From positions 1 through 64,000 of the IMG/VR virus record IMGVR_UViG_3300011008_000023: 64,000 bases of DNA; one strand, given 5' to 3'. Below are positions 45,315 through 60,877 of the stretch, in pieces (the stretch's first letter is position 1; each line of letters opens with the position of its first letter). This stretch comes from a virus. Its lineage: Duplodnaviria; Caudoviricetes. The notes under the pieces are model-generated. The model was not told the origin of the DNA. It saw only the letters and a program-made list of their open reading frames with translations, and made no database searches. The position numbers and the translations under genes were made by a program.

Positions 45315-45528
45315 TGTTAATTATTTCTTTAAATTTATTAAGATACCAAATTGCTTTTTCAATATCTTCAACGCATTTGCCTTTATGACAACATCTCCAG
45401 ATATATTTGAAAGCATTCAATTTACAAAATGATGCAACTTCAGCAGTTCCATATGCACCTATCATTGCATCAATACATTCCATTCCATTACTCTTATAAT
45501 GAGAAGGATGATTTACAGAATCATTCAT
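45307..45528 (-). CDS. DUF3310 family (T7 gp1.7-like) protein
   Basis: VNHPSHY...ECID...NAFKYIWR...K...EDIEKAIWYL signature. Confidence 0.85.
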   Translation of the reverse strand: MNDSVNHPSHYKSNGMECIDAMIGAYGTAEVASFCKLNAFKYIWRCCHKGKCVEDIEKAIWYLNKFKEIINND

Positions 45529-45851
45529 AATTTAATAAATTTTAAACCATAATCCTTTTCTAAAACTTTCTTAACAGGAATCCAGTAGGTACGAGAATCT
45601 ACTCCCCACCAATGCCCTTCATTAGGATGTAGATATTCATGTACTTTACTCCTAACTCTCCAGTTATAGCGGTCATAGAATGCTTTAACAGCCTGCTCCC
45701 TAGTTTTAAAAAACATCTTACCTCCTATAGTAAGAATTTTACCAGAGATAGTAATAGCCCAACCCTTCTCTTGCCCATTAATTGTACTATTTTGAAATAA
45801 GTCACGCACGAAGGAGGGTGTTATAAATCTTTCAATATTGTCTACAGACAT
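45525..45851 (-). CDS. Hypothetical protein
   Basis: 108-aa ORF, ATGA overlap with the next gene. Confidence 0.6.
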   Translation of the reverse strand: MSVDNIERFITPSFVRDLFQNSTINGQEKGWAITISGKILTIGGKMFFKTREQAVKAFYDRYNWRVRSKVHEYLHPNEGHWWGVDSRTYWIPVKKVLEKDYGLKFIKL

Positions 45852-46242: not shown

Positions 46243-46507
46243 CAATAATGTTACCTCTGAGGCTCTTTATCCTCAGACTCAATAGATTCCTTTTCTCTAC
46301 TGTTCAGACTATATCTTAACACATTTTTACAAAAGGCTTGGAGCTCTTTGTAGTTAGCACAATGTGTTCTCCCTTTTCTTGGTACTTTACTATCCTATAA
46401 GGATTCCATGTACTAGTCGTTACACCTTCTTAATATTACTATTAAGCTTGGCTCGGTATTAGCATCTCAGCCTTCACCGAATTTAAGGAGTTTAATCAGG
46501 GCCACCG
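46243..46507 (-). ncRNA. Group I self-splicing intron (265 nt, no homing endonuclease ORF) in polA
   Basis: 5' exon ends in U (CAGGGT) and pairs with the IGS GCCCTG (U.G wobble). Intron ends in G. P (AAATTCGGTGAA), Q (AATACCGAGC), R (ACGACTA) and S (AAGATATAGTC) elements present. Removal restores the PolA frame. Confidence 0.92.
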
Positions 46508-48325
46508 ACCCTGAGTAGGAGAATTAAGGGCATACCTATCATATTTACTTGCAGCCTGAAAATGATTTCTTACCATTACAGCAATTTCATCTCCAGTGCC
46601 TTTATGATTCTGCCTATAATCTTCCCAAAACTTTTCATTAAAAGATGATTGCCTTTCTTTCCATTCTTCCCAATCCCACCAGTAGACTTTATGTCCAGTA
46701 ATAGGTGATATTACTACATACCCATTTTTTCTGACAAATGCACTACCTTTTTTAACAAAGGCAGTTCTACCTGAGAAGAATTTATTTAGGTCATCTATGT
46801 ATTTCTGAGCTTGTTCTTCACTACAACCTGCTGATTTTGCTATTGTAGGTGCAGCAGCACCAAACAAATATGCAAATTCAACTCCTTTAACTTTATTTCT
46901 CCATTGAGGAGCTTTCTTATCTACTTCTAGCGCAGAGGTACAACCACACTCTTCACATTCTTTTCTAAATACTGCCCACGCAAACATTGCATGTGTATCT
47001 CCAGTTCTCTCTGTGAATTCTTTCTTCATTTCGGTGTCATTGTATATATCTGCACCTAATCTAGATTCTTCTGCAGAGAAATCACAAGACACAAACATAT
47101 TACCCTCCTCAGATACAAAGCATGCTCTAGTTTCAGCATCATGGGGAAGTTGCTGTAAATTTACATACTTAATATCTTTGAGGTGTTTGTATTTTGCCAA
47201 ATCTTTATTTGAGCCCCCTCCAGAAGACATCCTTCCAGTAGCTGCACCTATTTGCTTAAATGTAGTATGTAATCTACCAGTCTTTGGATTAATCAAGTCC
47301 AAATGACCTTGCCCATAAGTTCCTACTACTTTAGAAGCCTCTTTATAATTAAAATATAATTTAAGAAACTCATCATTAATACCTTTCTGATTAGATAACT
47401 CTTTTTCAAGAACAGTATCTTTATCTTCACCTGTTTTTTTGTCTTGAGTAGAAGTATTAAATCCTAATTTCTTAGCTATTTTGATTACCTGTTGAGAAGA
47501 GTCCCAATTAACAGAACATTTAGGAGTTAAATCAAATCCTGTAAATAAATATCCTTGAGTATCAACATATGTGTATTCTTCAAATTGTCCAGAATCAATA
47601 ATAAATTGGTCAAGAAGGGCCTTTCTTTCAGCAAGATTCTTTTGGTCTTTCTCCATTTTGGCTTTCCATTTCTTCTCATCTAATTTGATTCCACACCATT
47701 CAAGATATGCCATTGCTGGTACTGCTGCACATTCTAATTGAGCACCTACTATGCAACCTTTACGTTTACATTCGAGAAATTGTTTATCTGCTATATCTTC
47801 TAGATAGACAACATCTCCTGCAGCATATTTAATAACGCTACTATCTAAACCTCTCCAAATAATTTCACCTCTAACAGTTTTGTCTATATCAATATTTAAA
47901 TATCTCATAGCTATTTCTTTGAGAGAGAAGCTTACTCCTCCATAATTTCCATAAGAAGGATATCCTAGATACAATAATTGTTCAACAATCATAGTATCAT
48001 ATATCTTTCTAGGCTTTATATTATAATTGTAAAGGAATTGTAAATCAAACTTTGCATTTTGAAGAATAAGCTGTTTAGTTTCAAGTACTTCTTTATACTC
48101 TTTTATACTAATATCAGCACAATCAACGACAATTTGATTACCGGCAGCTCTATTTCCAAATTGTGCACAAAGTAAATCACATAAATGAGGGTCTCTACCA
48201 GAGGTTTCAGTATCGAATTGAATAACATTCCAATCTTTCATCATATTTAAAGACTCTTCTACAGTGATGATTTTATAATCAGAATGTTCAAACAACTCTC
48301 TATTTAAAGAGACTAAATAAATCAT
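46508..48325 (-). CDS. polA: DNA polymerase family A, exon 1 (3'-5' exonuclease plus polymerase motifs A and B)
   Basis: Exo DTET, NAKFD, YAAGD; ATGRMSS, NLQQLP, motif A DFSAEESR, motif B RNKVKGVEFAYLFG; ends at NSPTQG. Confidence 0.95.
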
Positions 48326-53262: not shown

Positions 53263-53752
53263 AATTATTAATAATTTCTAAAGCTTGAAGCAGCTGTCTC
53301 TTAGTATATACTTCAAAAAACATAGACCTTACTCCATCTTTCTCAAATTTATCATCTAAGAATTTTCTAAATAACTTTTTCTTGATATAAAAGACATCAT
53401 TTTCAATACCTTTTACTTCAATCCAGACATCTATGTCATTTTTTCTAAAATAAAAGTCTGGTGTATATCTTATACCAATAACTTTATCAGTTTTTGGTAT
53501 AAGTATCTTAGGTATTTTCTTTGTAATGCCTTCTGCTAACATTCTGCTCTCTAGTTGTTTATTTGTTTCTTGGTCATAAAATGGGGTGATGGGTTTAAAT
53601 CCCTCCCACAAAAGAAATGTATGTTTCTCATATTCAGGTGTAATACCTTTATCTACAAGAGTTCTATATATCACCTTTTCTGTTTGAGATTTAAAAGTAA
53701 TGCCTTTAACCTTAGCTGAAGTAGCATTTCTAATTTTTTTGTTTGGTGCCAT
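53234..53752 (-). CDS. PD-(D/E)XK endonuclease (T7 endonuclease I/DUF1064-like, possible resolvase)
   Basis: F.S..E...YE...YTPDF...IEVKG motif. Confidence 0.8.
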   Translation of the reverse strand: MAPNKKIRNATSAKVKGITFKSQTEKVIYRTLVDKGITPEYEKHTFLLWEGFKPITPFYDQETNKQLESRMLAEGITKKIPKILIPKTDKVIGIRYTPDFYFRKNDIDVWIEVKGIENDVFYIKKKLFRKFLDDKFEKDGVRSMFFEVYTKRQLLQALEIINNYAESITENK

Positions 53753-54429
53753 TAAACTACTTCTTCATTAAATTCATTATACCACACAATGGTTTCCTTA
53801 TACTCTTGTTTAAGATACTTATTTATTTCATAAAAAATATCAGATGGCATTCTTTTATTACTTCTTGCATAAAAGGCGGGGTGATTTTCTTTAAGTATAT
53901 GATTAGATTTATTAATATAAGGTTCAAAAGTTTGTGCCTGTTGTCCAAAAAGTACAAAAAGATAGTTACCATATGTTGATAAATTTTTAATAAGCTGTGA
54001 AATAAAGGGTCTCCACAATTGAGTGTGAGACCCTATTTTATTTACTTCAACAGTTAGTGCAGAGTTGAGCATGAGGATGCCCTGCTTTGCCCAACTCTCT
54101 AAAGTATTATCAAATATAATAGGATAATTGTGCGGTCTGGTATAATCTATAGCAGCCTCTTTGATAATCTGTAAAGATGGAGATAAGCTTTCTTCTGCAA
54201 CACTGCTAGAATTGCCAAATAATATACCTGTAGCTACACCTTTTTGTGGATATGGGTCTTGTCCTAGAAATATAACTTTGCAGTTACTTAGAGGGCATAG
54301 TTGAAATGCTTTAAAGACATTCTCTTTAGCAGGACAGATACTATTCATAGGAATACTATTTAAGGTCTTTACTAAAGTAGGAATATTAATCACCTTTACC
54401 CAATCACCAAAGAAACTTTCTATAGACAT
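53752..54429 (-). CDS. ung: Uracil-DNA glycosylase (family 1)
   Basis: LGQDPY, WAKQGILMLNSALTV, GSH...W and HPA motifs. Confidence 0.92.
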   Translation of the reverse strand: MSIESFFGDWVKVINIPTLVKTLNSIPMNSICPAKENVFKAFQLCPLSNCKVIFLGQDPYPQKGVATGILFGNSSSVAEESLSPSLQIIKEAAIDYTRPHNYPIIFDNTLESWAKQGILMLNSALTVEVNKIGSHTQLWRPFISQLIKNLSTYGNYLFVLFGQQAQTFEPYINKSNHILKENHPAFYARSNKRMPSDIFYEINKYLKQEYKETIVWYNEFNEEVV

Positions 54430-54432
54430 AAC

Positions 54433-55146
54433 TTAATTAAAATCATCAGCAACTTGTCTAAGTACCTCACCAATATGTTCCTTAAGGAAATTATTAACTT
54501 GGTCGCTTGAAAAGTTATTGAAATCTGGTTTACTAGGTTTTACATAAAAGTCAGAAGAGTCATCTATTACAATTCTGCAGGGAATAGCGGAGTTCCCCCA
54601 ATTTGAGATAACGTATGACAAATAGTATGGAATTCCCTTTCTTGCGATAGCTTTATTTACAGTAGTCTCTTCTGTAAATACAGAGGGATGTACATGTATT
54701 ACATACTCTTGAACTGAAATTATGGAGTTCTCTTCCTTCAAGTGCGCAGTAGACAGTAGTAAAGGAGTATAATTTTTATCTAAAAGAATTCCCCTATTTC
54801 CATAATAGGTGTCATCTTTTACTTTGAAACTGCCTAGTCTTGCATCACACCATCTACAGATATATTTAAATAATGCATCTGCTCCAGAGCAAACCTTTAC
54901 GAATGGTTCTCTGTATAATGGAGCTACAATATCTTCAGGTTCTGTAAGATTCTCTAAATTTGATGTTTCATCAATATATATCAATTGGGATGGAATTATA
55001 CACTCGTGTGGAGTGATGGTAGCCTTCACTATACCTCTATAAGCATCAATAGTTCTAGCATCATAAACATGATTAGTGAGTGATTGAAGACTTCCTCCCA
55101 TTACAAAGTTGTTCATTGTACTTCGATATGATGCACTAAATTCCAT
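54433..55146 (-). CDS. Hypothetical protein, last gene of the Ubl/E2/JAB/E1 cluster
   Basis: 237 aa; start overlaps the E1 stop by 1 nt (TAATG). Confidence 0.6.
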   Translation of the reverse strand: MEFSASYRSTMNNFVMGGSLQSLTNHVYDARTIDAYRGIVKATITPHECIIPSQLIYIDETSNLENLTEPEDIVAPLYREPFVKVCSGADALFKYICRWCDARLGSFKVKDDTYYGNRGILLDKNYTPLLLSTAHLKEENSIISVQEYVIHVHPSVFTEETTVNKAIARKGIPYYLSYVISNWGNSAIPCRIVIDDSSDFYVKPSKPDFNNFSSDQVNNFLKEHIGEVLRQVADDFN

Positions 55147-56051
55147 TATGTAATAACTTTAAAGAACATTGTTTCTGCAGTGTATTCAGTATAAAAAGGC
55201 AGGTCTCTTGGAACAAGAGGGTCACATTCATTAGCACAGAAATTAACAAATAAATTAACCATAACTGAAGCAATCATATTTGCCATGAAACTGGTTTGCT
55301 TATAACTACAAATAGTTTTATCAGCTTCTGCATCAGTAAATAGAAACTTATCAGCATATCTCTGCATACTAAATTCATCATCTCCTCTTATACAAAGAAT
55401 CTGAAAACTTTCAGCAGCCAATCTACCATCTATGAAGAGATATTTTTTACGAAGGTCTGCTGGTGCTTCTTGAACTTGTCTTTTCCAAGCATTATAGAAT
55501 GTTCTTCTTGCCTCCATATTATCAAAACCACAAATAGCTATTTCGGTACATAGCTCTGTACTATTTGTGAATCTCTCATTAGCAGTTGAAGCATAATAGT
55601 CAGAGTAGGTACGCATGTGCTCTGCTGTTGCACTTACTTTAAGTTGTCCTACATCATCAGTTTCATATAGCTGACCTGATATATTTGCAGATTCTACATA
55701 ATCATCATCATATAAGATAATGGTATCTGGATGCATCCTTGCCAGTAAGAATGCTACATAACTTCCAATTCCTCCTAATCCAGCCAAAGTAATTCTCTTA
55801 GTTCTAATATTATAATACCACGTAGCACCACTAAATCTGCTTGTAGTTTCTTCAACCAATATACTACCAGAATTTTGAGGAATTACTTCAGGGACTTCTT
55901 CTTCTGGAGGTGATGATGTATTTGTAGTTTCTGTACTGGTGTCCCATACATCTACACCCTTTGCTGCAGAATACTCTGCCATTGCTCTTGCAATGATAGA
56001 GTCTATTTCATCTGCTATTCTTGTACTACTGTAATCTTGTGACATAATCAT
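55146..56051 (-). CDS. ThiF/MoeB/E1-like adenylyltransferase (Ubl-activating enzyme)
   Basis: GLGGIG (91-96), YDDDYVE..N...Q, K138, GFDNMEAR, IDGR; candidate catalytic Cys248 (TICS); no CxxC zinc pairs. Confidence 0.88.
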   Translation of the reverse strand: MIMSQDYSSTRIADEIDSIIARAMAEYSAAKGVDVWDTSTETTNTSSPPEEEVPEVIPQNSGSILVEETTSRFSGATWYYNIRTKRITLAGLGGIGSYVAFLLARMHPDTIILYDDDYVESANISGQLYETDDVGQLKVSATAEHMRTYSDYYASTANERFTNSTELCTEIAICGFDNMEARRTFYNAWKRQVQEAPADLRKKYLFIDGRLAAESFQILCIRGDDEFSMQRYADKFLFTDAEADKTICSYKQTSFMANMIASVMVNLFVNFCANECDPLVPRDLPFYTEYTAETMFFKVIT

Positions 56052-57210
56052 TAAGTATATCTATATACTCATCAATATATTCATTCTTAGGAAGCTTCTT
56101 AAGAGCTGTAATTGTTTTGCTTGCAAGCATTGCTGCAACATCATACTCATCTTCCTTAGGGTCTGTTACTGTATACCAAATTAGGAATTCAATGAAATCA
56201 GTTGCCCAGAAGTAAAATAACTGCATTCCAATATCACCCTTACCAAACCTCTTGTCAAATCTCTTAGAGATGCTGTCTATAACTTTCTTTTTGGTTTCTG
56301 CATCCATCTTAGTTATAGTAACACTTCCGGTAAGGAGCTGATTTACAACTTCCTCAACTGCTGCATCTGTTAGTTTCTGATGTTGTACATCTTCAACTTC
56401 ACTAGGAGTAGAGGCTGATGAGCTTGATTTAGTATCTTCCCACTCTAAATCGTCAAATAATGTAGGTTCTTTATAGTGCTTATTGTAATAACTAGGTAGA
56501 GTATTTTTACTATTTACAGTATCATTATAAATATTTGGGTAGGTATACTGAGGAGTACTTGTTTTTGGTGCAGTCTTCTTCTTACTATCCCTAATCTCAT
56601 TAAGTCTACTATCTATAGTATAGAATGGATTCTCAGATTCTTCTTCTTTTATGACATCTAAATAGAAGTACTCAAGTTCTTCTCCTTCAATAACTTCTTT
56701 TTCTGGAATATCTACTGTTCCATTAAATCCTTCATAAGATAAATTTCTAATAGATTTATACTTAATTTTCCTTGTAATGGCTGCAGTATATGTTCCTGCA
56801 TTATTAACAATGAGAGACACAAAATGATTTCTGTCTTTACCTTCTGATTTAAGAGTATTAAGGTCAGTACCGCTAAAGAAACTCTGCATATTATTATGAG
56901 AGTGTATTAGACCCATCTTACAGTCAAGTAGCTCTGGATTCTCTGCCATATAGCTAATAACATCTGGAGACATATCAAATTCTGTATAGGTAGTACTTCC
57001 TATATCCATAGGCAGAATATCTACACAATTAATTTGCAATGAGTTATCTTCAAATTCTCCAGTAGGAGTATAAAATAGTATACCTGACCATTCTGTACTC
57101 CAAACTCTTTCGCAAAGGAATCTTATGATACGTTCAACCTTTGCAGGAATGATAATTTTATATGTATTTGACCTTTTTATGAGGCTCATCTCCTGTGGAT
57201 TTGCTTCCAT
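56026..57210 (-). CDS. JAB/JAMM (MPN+) metalloprotease
   Basis: E40 (EWSG) plus H103-S-H105-x7-S113-x2-D116, a complete JAMM motif; long C-terminal extension. Confidence 0.88.
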   Translation of the reverse strand: MEANPQEMSLIKRSNTYKIIIPAKVERIIRFLCERVWSTEWSGILFYTPTGEFEDNSLQINCVDILPMDIGSTTYTEFDMSPDVISYMAENPELLDCKMGLIHSHNNMQSFFSGTDLNTLKSEGKDRNHFVSLIVNNAGTYTAAITRKIKYKSIRNLSYEGFNGTVDIPEKEVIEGEELEYFYLDVIKEEESENPFYTIDSRLNEIRDSKKKTAPKTSTPQYTYPNIYNDTVNSKNTLPSYYNKHYKEPTLFDDLEWEDTKSSSSASTPSEVEDVQHQKLTDAAVEEVVNQLLTGSVTITKMDAETKKKVIDSISKRFDKRFGKGDIGMQLFYFWATDFIEFLIWYTVTDPKEDEYDVAAMLASKTITALKKLPKNEYIDEYIDILNDYVTRLQ

Positions 57211-58300
57211 ATCTAAAATTAATTACATTAAATATTTTTGTAAATATATAATTTCCAATCTCTGGACGGATAACTAAAACAAAATTGGGCTCAGATTCAT
57301 TTTCAGCATCTGGTATAGTAACATTAAAATCTGTTCCCTTAAAGGTACATACTTTCTTTCCAATATAAGAACTATAGTCTATTCCATTATTTGATTCTGC
57401 TACAATATGTCCATTAATGAATTTATATTTTGTAATAATACCTGAATGTAACAACTCATTTAATGAGAAATTTAATATTCCTTCATGGTGCTTTTTGTTG
57501 TACCACTTTATAAATAAGTTGCTAATTCTTATAAAGTACTCCGTAGAGGACATAGCTAGAATATAGCAGTTATTTTGATATGTAAACTTAAGTTCATTAC
57601 TATCAATGATGAATTTAATAAAGTCTGCTAAATTAGCTGCTGTTATAATAGGTGAGAGATGCCTTAAACTTATGTGTCCATCTAGATTAACATTATTAAA
57701 TTTAATCATTTGACGTGAATATCCTCCTGCTACAAGACTCTCCAATCTATGATACGGTGTACCCGCAATAGATTCTACTTGTACAAATTTAGATAATTCA
57801 AGACAGAATAAACCCCATAAATCAGCATCAAATTCTTTAATTAAAGAACAGATAGTACTATTAATAGGTCCTCTTCCTGTACATGGATTTTGAAATACTT
57901 CAAAATTGGTTAAAGGAATACAACTTATATGACTATGCATATATCCATTTACAAAATGTAATAAACTATACTCAGACCTATTTAGCCCAAATTTTCCACG
58001 TAGTTGTCCTGATGTATTAATAACAACCTTTGCAAATAAATGATTTATATCAGTAAACTTATCATACTCATTAGTGACTCTCACATGAGGAAAGTGAACT
58101 AATATAAATATCTCACAAGAATCAATATAGTGTTTAACGGCTGCAACACTTGCTGTTCCAGGGAGTGCAGCCTCCACATCAGTAAGACTAGGAACTCCTT
58201 GCATATCCACTTTATCTTCTCCAAAGAAATCATTGAAGATTTCTAAGACTTGCAAGGGTTTCTCCATTGCCGTATTATAGGCTTGTTCTAATACTCCCAT
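57158..58300 (-). CDS. Putative E2-like (UBC-fold) conjugating enzyme
   Basis: YMHSHI...NPCTG.GPI...W..F...L...ES..G.PY resembles the prokaryotic E2 HPH/HPN...C(L)G...PY pattern; candidate Cys140; lies between Ubl and JAB genes. Confidence 0.55.
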   Translation of the reverse strand: MGVLEQAYNTAMEKPLQVLEIFNDFFGEDKVDMQGVPSLTDVEAALPGTASVAAVKHYIDSCEIFILVHFPHVRVTNEYDKFTDINHLFAKVVINTSGQLRGKFGLNRSEYSLLHFVNGYMHSHISCIPLTNFEVFQNPCTGRGPINSTICSLIKEFDADLWGLFCLELSKFVQVESIAGTPYHRLESLVAGGYSRQMIKFNNVNLDGHISLRHLSPIITAANLADFIKFIIDSNELKFTYQNNCYILAMSSTEYFIRISNLFIKWYNKKHHEGILNFSLNELLHSGIITKYKFINGHIVAESNNGIDYSSYIGKKVCTFKGTDFNVTIPDAENESEPNFVLVIRPEIGNYIFTKIFNVINFRYGSKSTGDEPHKKVKYI

Positions 58301-58350
58301 ATAAAATAAAAAAATAAGTGGTGGTAGATAAATATTTCTACCACCACTTA
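58301..58350 (-). terminator. Rho-independent terminator/attenuator right after the Ubl gene
   Basis: Perfect 14-bp stem TAAGTGGTGGTAGA (58315-58328) / TCTACCACCACTTA (58337-58350), followed on the - strand by TTTTTTTATTTT. Confidence 0.85.
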
Positions 58351-58356
58351 AGATTT

Positions 58357-58968
58357 TTACTGATTCAGAAAATCAAACATTTCGTCAATGTCATCATCAG
58401 AGTAAGGAGAGTTATCCCTTACAGTAGTCTTTCCTGCGAGGGTATCACGAATCCAATCTCCCTCATAAGAAAGAATAACCTCATTATCCTCAAGTATTTC
58501 AACCAACTTGAGAATAGCCTCCACAATAACATTGTCACTGCTGTTGTTGGCAGCAGCCTCCTGAGCCTGCTCAATAAGATTCATGAGCTCAGAGTTCTTG
58601 CACTGTGTAAAATTCTTCCCATAGGTAGAAATACATGCATCCTTCAGACCAAGCTCATCAATTGCATCATAGAGAGCCTGACGAGCTTCGGGGAGGGAAG
58701 CACCACTCTTAATCTTCTTATTAGGGTTAGTGAGCATAAATACAAGCTCATTAGTGATATTTCCCTTATAGGAGATATCATGAGGAAGAATAGACTCATC
58801 AGTGAGGAGCTCAGTGTGTGAGAGTCCCTCATAGAAAGTCATTCCCTCATAAGGGATATTCTGGGCACGAAGAGCAGCTTTGAGTTCTGCAAGAGTAGTG
58901 GCATCAGTGTTAACGACATACTTGCTCTGATTGCTAGTGGATACGATGGTAATGTTTCTTGCTTCCAT
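58357..58968 (-). CDS. Putative ubiquitin-like (beta-grasp) protein precursor with C-terminal extension
   Basis: Residues 1-89 follow the beta-beta-alpha-beta-beta-beta pattern (RNITIVS, KYVVNT, TTLAELKAAL, MTFYE, DESILP, ELVFML) and end KKIKSG89; high-expression codon bias. Confidence 0.6.
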   Translation of the reverse strand: MEARNITIVSTSNQSKYVVNTDATTLAELKAALRAQNIPYEGMTFYEGLSHTELLTDESILPHDISYKGNITNELVFMLTNPNKKIKSGASLPEARQALYDAIDELGLKDACISTYGKNFTQCKNSELMNLIEQAQEAAANNSSDNVIVEAILKLVEILEDNEVILSYEGDWIRDTLAGKTTVRDNSPYSDDDIDEMFDFLNQ

Positions 58969-58973
58969 AATTG

Positions 58974-59972
58974 TTAAAAATTGTTAAATAATGATAAAAT
59001 AATTTCTTTAAATTTTTGTTTATCTTTTAAGGAGTGATATAAATCAGATATATCTTTACCTCCATTGAATTTTGGTAATACTATATTAGTGAACCCTGTT
59101 TGTTTGCTTAATTTCTCTCCATCAATTAGCCCTGCTTCATCGCAATCAAACAGAATATAAATGTGCTTAAACCTCTTCTTTAATTCACTAACTGCAGTAT
59201 TACTCATTGTATAGCCTTCACCCTGGGTGGCTAAACAAGGAATGCCAGTATTAGACCATAAGCACAGTGCGTCTTTTAATGAGGAGCATATACAAATTCT
59301 TTCTCCCTCTTTTGGAACTTTGGTCCACAGACTTATTACAGAACTGTCTGTACTAGTGCACCACTTAAAACCTCTCTTATTAAAAGGTTGATAAATTTTA
59401 ATACTGATATTTCCTTCTTTCTTTTCTACATATGCGTAGGCATACTTATCTGCCCCAAAAACATATCTTTTATTTCCCTTAGTAATAATTTTGTGAGATA
59501 TTGGATATACATCTGCATATTTCAACCACTCTAATGACACTCCAAAAGAGTCCCAATATTGTATATCGTGTTTTCTCCAATCTCGTACTTTGATTTCTAT
59601 TTTGGATTTCTCTTTTTCTTTAAGAATAGTTCTTGTACTTCCACCAACTTCTTTAGTAGTGATTTCTTTATTGTCTTTGTGAGATAGAAAATCCTCAGCT
59701 ACTTTATCAAGTACTTCATTGTAAGGGATTTGCCACATTTGAGAAAGGAGGTCAAATAAACCTCCTCTCTCTCCCGTAGCAAAATCATTATAGCGGACTT
59801 TACCATCAAATGTATATATTCCAAACGATGGTTTATTATCAGTTCTCAATGGAGAATGAATTACACAAGGTATTTCAATTATATTTAAATACCTAGCCGC
59901 TATATTGACTTCAGTTGTTCGTTCTAATATGTCTTCGAGGCTTACAGATTTCTTACCAGAACTGAAAGCCAT
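58974..59972 (-). CDS. dnaG: DnaG-like primase
   Basis: N-terminal SPLR.D..PSF...DF..G domain; Toprim with DCDEAG and KDISD. Confidence 0.88.
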   Translation of the reverse strand: MAFSSGKKSVSLEDILERTTEVNIAARYLNIIEIPCVIHSPLRTDNKPSFGIYTFDGKVRYNDFATGERGGLFDLLSQMWQIPYNEVLDKVAEDFLSHKDNKEITTKEVGGSTRTILKEKEKSKIEIKVRDWRKHDIQYWDSFGVSLEWLKYADVYPISHKIITKGNKRYVFGADKYAYAYVEKKEGNISIKIYQPFNKRGFKWCTSTDSSVISLWTKVPKEGERICICSSLKDALCLWSNTGIPCLATQGEGYTMSNTAVSELKKRFKHIYILFDCDEAGLIDGEKLSKQTGFTNIVLPKFNGGKDISDLYHSLKDKQKFKEIILSLFNNF

Positions 59973-59983
59973 ATTATTTATTT

Positions 59984-60877
59984 TTAATTAAACCAACCTG
60001 TAGGGGTTGCAGTTTCTGCAGGTAAATCATCTGCAGAAGTAGCATCTACATTATATTCGTGAAGAGGCACTGCCTCAAATTCAGTTGTAGAATAAGCTCC
60101 TGCTGACTTACGGTCCTGAAGGTCCTTATCAAGCTTACTGAAATCTGTCACACCATTACGCAGGACCATCTGAGTATATGCAGTTTGATACTGCTTACCA
60201 TCATCAGATGTACGTATACCAAACATAATCTTTACTTTGTTGTTTGGCTGATAAGACATAATTTCCTTAAGCTCCTTGAAGTCACCAGCGAAGAATTTAT
60301 CAATACCGTCCAGCCTAGCTTCGCACTCTGCAGGATTGTCAACAAGAATCCACTTGCCATCAACATACTTCTGAACATTAGGAATATTCAAATATGTCTT
60401 AATGAAGTTGGTGAGGTCCTCCTCTCCAACAAAGCAAGGGCGATAATCTTTATCAAGATTAGCAGGTCCATTAGCATACTGAGGAATTTCATGATTATTA
60501 GCCTGTTCCTTAGTTACCCAAGCAGTACGGCCATACTTATCAATAACCTGTACTTTGGACTTATCCCTATTGAAACGATACTCCTTTCTAATGAAGTAGC
60601 TAACCCTAGAGGTCATCTCAATACCATTTGCCCTCTCAGCATCTGTTTTGACAATGAAATCTATACGAGCATAGGGAACCTGAGTACCATTGACTTCCTG
60701 AGTACCTATATACTCAGGGTCTTTATCCATTGTATTATTATAGATAGCCTCAAGTTCTCCTTTAGTAGGATTAGTACTTACTACAAATACAGGAGCAACC
60801 CCAATATAACGTTTAAATTCACCACTCTCTGTGGTAACCTTACCTGCTGAAAATGCCATAAAAGAATAATTACCCAT
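59984..60877 (-). CDS. Single-stranded DNA-binding protein (putative)
   Basis: Between primase and AAA ATPase; high-expression codons; acidic C-tail (ADDLP...WF). Confidence 0.6.
   Translation of the reverse strand: MGNYSFMAFSAGKVTTESGEFKRYIGVAPVFVVSTNPTKGELEAIYNNTMDKDPEYIGTQEVNGTQVPYARIDFIVKTDAERANGIEMTSRVSYFIRKEYRFNRDKSKVQVIDKYGRTAWVTKEQANNHEIPQYANGPANLDKDYRPCFVGEEDLTNFIKTYLNIPNVQKYVDGKWILVDNPAECEARLDGIDKFFAGDFKELKEIMSYQPNNKVKIMFGIRTSDDGKQYQTAYTQMVLRNGVTDFSKLDKDLQDRKSAGAYSTTEFEAVPLHEYNVDATSADDLPAETATPTGWFN

Follow-up and report, generated by a model that had tools for sequence, protein, structure and literature searches.

We found that a 64,000-nucleotide stretch of DNA from a Caudoviricetes virus (IMG/VR record IMGVR_UViG_3300011008_000023, positions 1 to 64,000; referred to here as the window) carries at positions 54,433 to 58,968 a cassette of five co-oriented genes, g1 to g5, that suggests a phage-run pathway for the activation and conjugation of a ubiquitin-like protein (Ubl). 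The source record is a complete virus genome of 98,593 bp with direct terminal repeats, and the source is a complete 98.6-kb crAss-like gut phage. Our data indicate that g1 encodes a probable Ubl precursor, g3 a JAMM peptidase and g4 a minimal E1-like enzyme, while g2 is a candidate E2 gene. What we observe is the anatomy of these genes; the steps of the pathway are all proposed from it, and we place the chance that the phage runs them somewhat above even.

An earlier note on this DNA, made from its letters, had proposed such a pathway, and our data support it in part. On the computable checks that it had offered (the folds of the g1 and g2 products, conservation of Cys140 in g2 and Cys248 in g4, synteny in relatives) the results came out in its favor, while the E2 scores are weak and membership in the bacterial systems that it cited did not hold. 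All five open reading frames (ORFs) lie on the minus strand between primase and UDG where the note had placed them, and every residue that it named sits at its codon and is invariant in relatives (invariance was scored on alignments of relatives clustered at 75% identity). The last four genes indeed overlap one another, by 53 nt (g2/g3), 26 nt (g3/g4) and 1 nt (g4/g5, with the g5 start on the g4 stop), and a gap of 56 nt separates g1 from g2. The genes and their parts are as follows.

58968-58357, minus: g1, 203 aa
58702..58968, minus: g1 residues 1-89, beta-grasp domain ending in KKIKSG89, the predicted mature Ubl (AlphaFold2 model and fold searches)
58357..58701, minus: g1 residues 90-203, helical part beyond the Gly, whose acidic/aromatic tail, YS..EID.MF, is conserved (model and alignment)
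58300-57158, minus: g2, 380 aa
57731..58300, minus: g2 residues 1-190, UBC(E2)-like domain with invariant Y120-x-H122-S123-H124 and C140-x-G-x-G-P (model and alignments)
57158..57730, minus: g2 residues 191-380, linker and alpha/beta C-terminal domain (model)
57210-56026, minus: g3, 394 aa
56761..57210, minus: g3 residues 1-150, JAB/JAMM metallopeptidase domain with E40 and H103-x-H105-x7-S113-x2-D116
56026..56760, minus: g3 residues 151-394, variable linker and conserved helical C-terminal domain (alignment)
56051-55146, minus: g4, 301 aa; the whole gene (55146..56051) encodes a minimal E1-like adenylating enzyme of ThiF fold with a variable acidic N-terminal extension, about residues 1-60 (Pfam and profile)
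55146-54433, minus: g5, 237 aa

The predicted Ubl precursor and its candidate enzymes

The g1 product had been read as beta-grasp-like, and we found its N-terminal domain to be a beta-grasp domain by AlphaFold2 model, Foldseek and VIA alike. The model has a mean pLDDT of 81 over the whole protein, with 10-residue block means of 87-95 over residues 1-80, and its elements run in the order b-b-a-b-b-b-b, followed by a floppy or disordered tail at residues 84-91 that holds KKIKSG89 and then by the helical part. The top 50 VIA matches are all beta-grasp or ubiquitin-superfold proteins (DIX, TINCR, ubiquitin, UBX, MoaD and FAT10 are among the types), all cover residues 1-85 at Z 7.1-9.4, and nearly all have a root-mean-square deviation (rmsd) of 2-3 Å over about 70-77 residues. 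Foldseek returned ubiquitin, SUMO1, NEDD8 and TINCR at a probability of 1.0 and TMt of 0.6-0.7; the g1 sequence profile searched against the PDB gave chance-level matches only. Ser88 and Gly89 are invariant in 21 diverse sequences, and the linker beyond them varies in length and composition. Hence g1 combines the two marks of a Ubl modifier, a beta-grasp fold and a flexible tail ending in Gly.

Cleavage is predicted to release the post-Gly part of g1. Its conserved positions (R96, T121, L128 and the C-terminal tail) surround a low-complexity linker that varies. In a 312-aa g1 homologue (L060:2456-3394) this part contains a ribosomal L7/L12 C-terminal domain (Pfam PF00542, 1.6e-12), and therefore the released fragment seems exchangeable. 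Other 312-aa homologues occur in L062, L065, L066, L070 and L072; the Pfam scan covered L060. A HeH/SAP-like motif in the post-Gly part of one member (Pfam HeH, E 0.25) was dropped as unsupported.

Furthermore, we found relatives in which g1 is naturally split. In four loci a free-standing HNH/NUMOD homing endonuclease interrupts g1 two residues past the invariant Gly, at the following sites.

L007:2386-3315, g1-splitting endonuclease
L015:2162-3375, g1-splitting endonuclease
L020:1770-2973, g1-splitting endonuclease
L091:4001-5296, g1-splitting endonuclease

In L007, L015 and L020 the g1 homologue is a 91-92-aa ORF ending in KKIKSG-KF, an HNH_3/NUMOD endonuclease gene comes next, and a separate ORF then starts just ahead of the conserved MTR.EAY of the post-Gly part. 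The endonuclease of L007 has decayed, and both halves of g1 are still open there. A group I intron was rejected as the cause of the split: Rfam found none at E ≤ 1 and the flanks of the endonuclease ORF measure only 1-16 nt, which argues that the endonuclease is free-standing and, therefore, that the two halves of g1 work as separate proteins. In a large protein collection, at least 14 further clusters of 91-aa proteins matched the Ubl domain, some of them on contigs of 99-101 kb; the seven sequences read all end in SG plus KF, IY, IC or KC, dipeptide extensions that recall classical Ubl precursors. One such contig has the order primase, 91-aa Ubl, endonuclease, 158-aa post-Gly protein, g2. 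Judged from these sequences, the Gly89 junction is a natural break point of g1, and the split halves fit the products that would normally be expected, Ubl(1-89) and a released C-terminal fragment.

The JAMM motif reported earlier for g3 is complete. E40, H103, H105, S113 and D116 are invariant in 20 diverse sequences with the exact spacing H-x-H-x7-S-x2-D, a motif that by sequence would place g3 in the JAB/JAMM family. Library matches point the same way: Pfam Prok-JAB at 4.1e-4 (20.7 bits against a cut-off of 25), PADLOC JAB at 1.5e-3, and, in a profile search of the PDB, P. furiosus JAMM1 (5lda) as the top match with the motif aligned (E 0.04). The C-terminal part of g3 has R321, F322 and L370 invariant, and its approximately 240 residues gave no family match in the library and PDB profile searches. 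PHROGs keeps separate families for the N- and C-terminal parts of g3 (phrog_21448 and phrog_16107). In L091 (6608-8276) the JAB gene is broken inside the H-x-H...S-x2-D motif, with a first part that ends in ...GLIHSHNNMS and a second that begins with ...MTFFSDTD; a group I intron (Rfam RF00028, 77.3 bits, L091:7744-7998) bearing a LAGLIDADG ORF forms the insert.

The earlier assignment of g4 as a ThiF/E1 enzyme holds. Pfam ThiF (PF00899) matches at 1.1e-16 with 61.2 bits, over its curated cut-off of 28.1, and the best NCBIfam matches are ThiF models, below cut-off. In the PDB, the g4 profile matches UBA5 best (4.6e-11), then MccB, UBA6, PaaA and ThiF; in an hhalign comparison with a Bub E2-E1 protein, the E1 part was matched at 96.6%. 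The enzyme consists of one adenylation domain and has no rhodanese domain. Invariant residues include the nucleotide-binding motif G91-x-G93-G94-I95-G96-S (position 92 varies), D115, D117, N123, Q127, K138, the D177-N178 and A181-R182 pairs of the DN..AR motif, and C248. The last opens an invariant block, C248-S-Y250-K-Q-T, that lies 71 residues past the catalytic D177 and is followed by a helix-like hydrophobic stretch. Since the catalytic Cys250 of UBA5 lies near the C-terminal end of the crossover loop (PMC11601596), Cys248 of g4 is its plausible counterpart. Bub E1s use a crossover-loop Tyr instead of Cys (PMC11601596), and because both residues are invariant in g4 its chemistry could be Cys- or Tyr-based. 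A tblastn search of g4 against plasmids returned MoeB/ThiF matches at the level of the Rossmann fold only, and no PRTRC-like relative.

For g2, the earlier E2-like claim stands as far as the UBC-like topology of the N-terminal domain and the invariant C140 are concerned; a sequence link to the E2 family was not obtained, and the structural Z scores stay at or below 5.7. The model has a pLDDT of 82 overall, 87-98 over residues 1-170 and 72-80 at residues 171-190, and it runs from a long N-terminal helix (a1) through a four-strand meander, with a helical insert after strand 1, to a loop holding the HSH motif and C140 and then to two helices. In an exhaustive VIA search most of the top 50 matches were E2, UEV or RWD proteins (Z 3.9-5.7, rmsd about 4 Å over 107-147 residues), including the UEV domains of BRISC and Tsg101, RWD domains, many E2s, Cap2 (7to3) and BubCD-BubB (9eav). 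A second VIA look, with E2-25K, Tsg101 UEV and Atg3, agreed with the first. H122, S123, H124 and C140 are invariant in the relatives, with the H122-S-H124 motif 16-18 residues upstream of C140; over 151 clusters at ≤50% identity, C140 was present in all 151, H122 in 150, and S123 and H124 each in 150 or 151. The family is large, with 2,841 clusters at 50% identity and E ≤ 1e-3, 915 of them at ≤ 1e-30. Its only library match is phrog_15310, a PHROG without an assigned function, and its sequence profile gave chance-level matches only against the PDB. The C-terminal domain (pLDDT mostly 70-95 over residues 220-365) has F320, K321 and G322 conserved and matches faintly, at Z 3-3.5, the winged-helix-like parts of poxvirus D5/E5, TnsB and ScpB. 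Given the make-up of the match list, the modelled topology, the gene context and the invariant residues, we consider an E2-like role the best reading of g2, short of proof.

Conservation of the locus and neighboring features

We scanned IMG/VR with g4, which returned 80 loci, and found that the order primase-g1-g2-g3-g4-g5-UDG is kept in approximately 75 of them, the exceptions being mostly contig ends. Bacteroides phage crAss001 has the same order, annotated as gp80 to gp74, as does DAC15. Since the order recurs in this way, g1 to g5 are real genes rather than chance ORFs. Within the crAss001 cassette only gp77 ("metalloprotease domain") and gp76 ("thiamine biosynthesis protein, ThiF") have named products. 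The classified relatives all belong to Steigviridae, subfamily Asinivirinae (Kehishuvirus, Mahlunavirus, Lahndsivirus and Wulfhauvirus), and the layout is retained in the unclassified Dulem virus 41. Flavobacterium phage Fpv3 (Fipvunavirus) has primase and UDG followed by homologues of g1, g2, g3 and g4 in that order, with hidden Markov model E-values of 8.5e-12, 1.4e-20, 8e-47 and 2.5e-54, respectively, and with the KSG, YMHSH and Cys motifs retained. The cluster is thus syntenic across relatives, as the earlier note had asked to see, and g1 to g4 are co-inherited across approximately 80 crAss-like loci, Dulem virus 41 and Fpv3. A megablast of the region against phages gave no near-identical record. 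Xanthomonas and Erwinia jumbo phages have only the ThiF gene in common with the cassette, and the g1 to g3 profiles had no match beside it; in Xanthomonas phage PhiXhv-15 (L083:3253-6806) a related ThiF gene comes after an 892-aa protein without Pfam match and before an overlapping 70-aa ORF, and this jumbo-phage locus could be another phage Ubl-type module.

The cassette lies among genes for primase, UDG, nucleases and RNR. Its flanks and the feature between its first two genes are these.

58974..59972, minus: primase flank (Toprim; Pfam Toprim_2 3.9e-4), orthologue of crAss001 gp80, which is annotated primase
53752..54429, minus: UDG flank (Pfam UDG 3.9e-12), orthologue of crAss001 gp74
58305..58350, minus: terminator-like hairpin with T-run between the g1 stop and the g2 start, 14-bp stem with 6 GC pairs

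The Toprim matches of the primase are weak, at or under the Pfam cut-off. On the coding strand, the hairpin occupies 58350-58315 and is followed by TTTTTTTATT, with the ATG of g2 approximately 15 nt past the stem. A hairpin with T-run is found at the same position in 68 of 74 related loci and the stem sequences are unrelated, which argues that the structure rather than the sequence is conserved. Because this strong terminator-like hairpin separates g1 from g2, the five genes are probably not one simple operon; of the operon described earlier, the linkage and shared orientation of the five genes remain. Its sequence and position make the hairpin a probable attenuator, one that would hold expression of the enzymes under that of the Ubl precursor.

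The last gene, g5, is less constant than g1 to g4. It has 102 homologues, all without a Pfam domain, and the long contigs among them measure approximately 100 kb, the size of a crAss-like genome. P52, Y114, G116 and L221 are invariant. Searches of Pfam, NCBIfam, PHROGs, PADLOC and the ESM Atlas were blank for g5, and its profile found chance-level matches only in the PDB; the Atlas's own model of the protein is poor (pLDDT 0.33) and offered nothing usable.

Upstream of the primase, a 297-aa gene (59984-60877, minus), homologue of crAss001 gp81, had no family match. Its product has an acidic C-terminal stretch with an aromatic tip (...DDLPAETATPTGWFN), a tail that recalls those of phage single-strand DNA-binding proteins. 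Elsewhere in the window, the polA reading frame is broken into ORFs at 46496-48325 and 45525-45851; Rfam (gathering threshold) and ARAGORN, run over positions 1-64000, found no RNA family and no tRNA, 46243-46507 included.

Proposed pathway and competing explanations

We propose that g1 would be produced as a precursor, which the g3 peptidase would cut past Gly89, setting a beta-grasp Ubl of 89 residues apart from a helical C-terminal fragment. Such pre-processing of a Ubl precursor by a JAB peptidase, exposing a Gly, has been shown for Bil (PMC10557695) and for BubAB (PMC11601596). The small and probably homodimeric g4 enzyme would then adenylate Gly89 with ATP, and the Ubl would be loaded on its crossover-loop Cys248, or possibly Tyr250, before being passed to Cys140 of the UBC-like domain of g2, with His122 and His124 nearby. 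From there, g2 would move the Ubl to lysines of target proteins. The extra C-terminal domains of g2 and g3, together with g5, are candidates for target choice, g3 could also reverse the tag, and, owing to the hairpin after g1, the Ubl precursor would be made in excess over the enzymes. That the cassette keeps its place between primase and UDG suggests an early function tied to replication.

In its most far-reaching form, to which we give slightly less than an even chance, this proposal holds that Steigviridae-type crAss-like phages and Fipvunavirus phages run a full Ubl tagging cascade of their own during infection. Precursor Ubl, JAB maturase, minimal E1 and a new UBC-like E2 family would together mark replication or host proteins, and the released g1 fragment would be a second, exchangeable effector, with a ribosomal L7/L12 C-terminal domain in some lineages.

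Several results weigh against the proposed conjugation pathway, most of them concerning g2. Its VIA Z scores, at most 5.7, fall under the tool's caution line of 8, and its model returned nothing at E ≤ 0.001 in a Foldseek search of the PDB. No E2 model in Pfam, NCBIfam or PADLOC matched g2, 20 of its relatives had no Pfam match, and hhalign against the Bub E2-E1 protein of a Bradyrhizobium plasmid operon left the E2 part blank. The invariant H-S-H motif, Cys and Glu residues of g2 could instead form a metal site or another kind of active site. Furthermore, the g4 sequence is without CxxC pairs, while ThiF, MoeB and UBA5 have Zn-binding CxxC pairs. Lastly, a g5 homologue was not found by BLAST in six loci and was not recognizable in Fpv3 by g5 profile search.

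We also weighed other explanations of the same genes. The Ubl might be activated without any tagging by an E2, if g1, g3 and g4 work as a sulfur-carrier or acyl-adenylate module, of which CysO/Mec+/MoeZ, QbsE/QbsD/QbsC and TtuB/TtuC are examples; a Ubl thiocarboxylate, made with sulfur from host donors, would then modify a nucleotide, DNA or tRNA, and g2 and g5 would have other roles. Known triads of a JAMM protein, a C-terminally extended Ubl and an E1 do serve sulfur transfer (Iyer et al. 2006, PMC1779556). The cassette also sits among genes of nucleotide and DNA metabolism, MoaD is among the structural matches of g1, and ThiF models head the NCBIfam matches of g4, if below cut-off. Yet the observation that no thiamine or molybdopterin genes lie nearby, made in the earlier note, extends to the complete 98.6-kb genome, which is likewise without a rhodanese, PP-loop ATPase, cysteine desulfurase or ThiS-family gene. 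Nor does g4 carry a rhodanese domain, and g2, UBC-like with an invariant Cys, is always linked to g1, g3 and g4. Sulfur carriers usually end in Gly-Gly, whereas the Ubl here ends in Ser-Gly, and on balance we regard a sulfur-carrier role as unlikely. We find it quite improbable that the cassette acts in counter-defense or as a decoy, with the phage JAB stripping host Bil, Bub or CBASS conjugates (Ubl or cGAS-type), or with phage proteins that compete with or mis-charge host machinery, and with no targets of its own. The earlier note had raised such a use, bacterial Ubl systems do act against phages (PMC10557695, PMC11601596), and the Rossmann region of g4 matches Cap2 and BilD models at approximately 1e-9. 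However, a simple counter-defense gene would be expected to be patchy in its spread, yet the cassette keeps to one position of the replication module in genera that infect Bacteroides and Flavobacterium; a complete kit with its own precursor Ubl exceeds what a deconjugase needs, and g1, g2 and g3 have no sequence-level tie to Bil, Bub or CBASS proteins.

Two readings would leave the Ubl without onward transfer. In the first, g1 is a permanent adaptor with a Ubl domain, neither cleaved nor conjugated (like Rad23, BAG1 or polymerizing proteins of the DIX type), g2 is a non-catalytic partner resembling UEV or RWD domains, and g3 and g4 act elsewhere. The top matches of g1 include DIX/SOSEKI, PB1 and the Ubl-plus-helical-domain proteins BAG1 and hHR23a, and non-catalytic UEV or RWD domains account for several of the g2 matches with the highest scores, three of the top four among them. 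This adaptor role is nevertheless very doubtful: Ser-Gly is invariant at the end of the domain with a disordered stretch next to it, the stand-alone Ubls stop two residues past the Gly, an intact JAMM gene and an E1 gene are always linked to g1, and g2 has an invariant Cys, a residue missing from UEV and RWD domains (Iyer et al. 2006, PMC1779556). In the second, g4 modifies the C-terminus of a peptide or protein in the manner of MccB or PaaA, for example by nucleotidylation or cyclization. The g4 profile does find MccB (2e-9) and PaaA (2e-8) near the top of its PDB matches, but these are confined to the shared Rossmann region, UBA5 scores better, and the substrate would be a beta-grasp protein ending in Gly rather than a short peptide, all of which makes this extremely unlikely.

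To our knowledge, bacterial Ubl conjugation has been shown only for anti-phage defense (CBASS, Bil and Bub); a full set of such genes that phages themselves keep, strictly conserved, in their replication module would turn this view around. If the proposed pathway is true, it would be the first case of a prokaryotic virus encoding a complete Ubl conjugation system, it would assign function to five genes now annotated "hypothetical protein", "metalloprotease domain" or "thiamine biosynthesis protein", and the UBC fold would gain a new sequence family in g2. Steigviridae-type crAss-like phages are among the most abundant human gut viruses, and direct testing is possible because crAss001, DAC15 and FpV phages have been cultured. 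The K-S-G tail of the Ubl predicts that trypsin would leave a Ser-Gly remnant on target lysines. In the full-text literature we found no paper describing the cassette in crAss-like phages, subscription-only papers being outside this coverage; new in our analysis are the splitting of g1 by homing endonucleases, giving 91-aa Ubls, and the recurrent hairpin after g1.

Comparison with known systems

The closest likenesses are to the Bub and Bil systems. Like Type I Bub (BubAB, BubCD and BubE; formerly 6E.1; Ye et al. 2024, PMC11601596), the cassette has a Ubl at the N-terminus of a longer precursor, a minimal UBA5/ThiF-like E1 adenylation domain with no inactive adenylation domain, and an E2 candidate that by its modelled topology would share the diverged UBC fold of the Bub E2 (9eav is among the g2 matches). 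The Bub JAB cuts directly past the conserved Gly, as we predict here. Both also have an invariant Tyr around the crossover loop of the E1, which is Y250 in g4, and an invariant Ser-His pair in the E2-like protein, S123-H124 in g2. In contrast, the released part of the precursor is a helical domain here and the E2 in Bub, where Ubl and E2 are fused; JAB and E1 are separate genes here and a JAB-E1 fusion in Bub; and the cassette has an invariant Cys in each of g4 (C248) and the E2-like g2 (C140), where Bub relies on oxyesters of Tyr and Ser. No sequence similarity links g2 to the Bub E2-E1 protein, and hhalign of g2 and g5 against the DUF6527 protein of the Bradyrhizobium plasmid Bub operon gave no counterpart of BubE, the Bub serine protease. 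Lastly, Bub loci serve bacterial defense, while the cassette belongs to lytic-type phages and sits inside their replication module.

Bil (BilA Ubl, BilB E2, BilC JAB and BilD E1; PMC10557695), operon class 6d of Iyer et al. 2006 (PMC1779556), likewise consists of four separate genes. Its JAB pre-processes the Ubl to expose a Gly (PMC10557695), as proposed here, and it shares with the cassette a cysteine-based chemistry (predicted in our case), the lack of an E3 and an E2 that is thought to pick the targets. It differs in its E1: BilD has the arrangement IAD-AAD-CYS, whereas g4 is a 301-aa protein with one adenylation domain, and the BilD model matches only Rossmann residues 85-188 of g4 (2.5e-9). 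The PADLOC models of Bil had no match to g1, g2 or g3. Unlike in Bil, g2 and g3 carry large extra C-terminal domains, and the carrier is a phage rather than a bacterium.

Among eukaryotic systems, UBA5-UFM1 resembles the cassette in its E1: the g4 profile has no better match among solved structures than UBA5 (4.6e-11), whose catalytic Cys is located toward the end of the crossover loop. The UFM1 precursor extends two residues past a single C-terminal Gly, and the 91-aa stand-alone Ubls here also consist of a domain ending in Gly plus two residues. Past the fold, no relation of g1 to UFM1 or of g2 to UFC1 was detectable, and g4 has neither the C-terminal E2-binding tail nor the Zn site of UBA5. 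The ThiS/MoaD sulfur-carrier pathway finds no carrier-family, sulfurtransferase or biosynthetic partner gene in the complete genome, although the host could supply such partners.

The PRTRC cassette (ParB-related, ThiF-related) is a mobile-element set of ThiF, JAB, E2-like and small Ubl proteins. Against its ThiF model (PRTRC_ThiF, TIGR03736), g4 scores 43.3 bits, far from the cut-off of 144.75; none of the NCBIfam models PRTRC A-F matches g1, g2, g3 or g5, and there is no ParB. CBASS type II shares an E1 domain, an E2 domain (a candidate one here) and a JAB (Cap2 and Cap3), and Cap2 (7to3) is among the structural matches of g2. Cap2 is, however, an E1-E2 fusion that conjugates the CD-NTase by its own C-terminus, while the cassette has no such fusion and a dedicated Ubl; the CBASS E1-E2 models match only the Rossmann part of g4, and no CD-NTase or effector was recognized at the locus, where no CD-NTase model was searched.

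A phage precedent for part of the cassette is the TAPI-TAPK pair of lambda and T1 (Iyer et al. 2006, PMC1779556), in which a Ubl with conserved C-terminal Gly, a linker and a C-terminal domain is paired with a JAB peptidase predicted to cut at the Gly. That pair belongs to the tail module and has neither E1 nor E2, whereas the cassette has an E1 gene and an E2-like gene and lies in the replication module. Of the kits that had been cited for it (Bil, CBASS Cap2/Cap3 and PRTRC), Bil is alike in gene complement, and the defining features of each were not found. We read the cassette as a phage-carried variant of the Ubl-E1-E2-JAB cascade; for all its likeness to Bil and Bub it is a member of neither system, and PRTRC and CBASS do not include it either.

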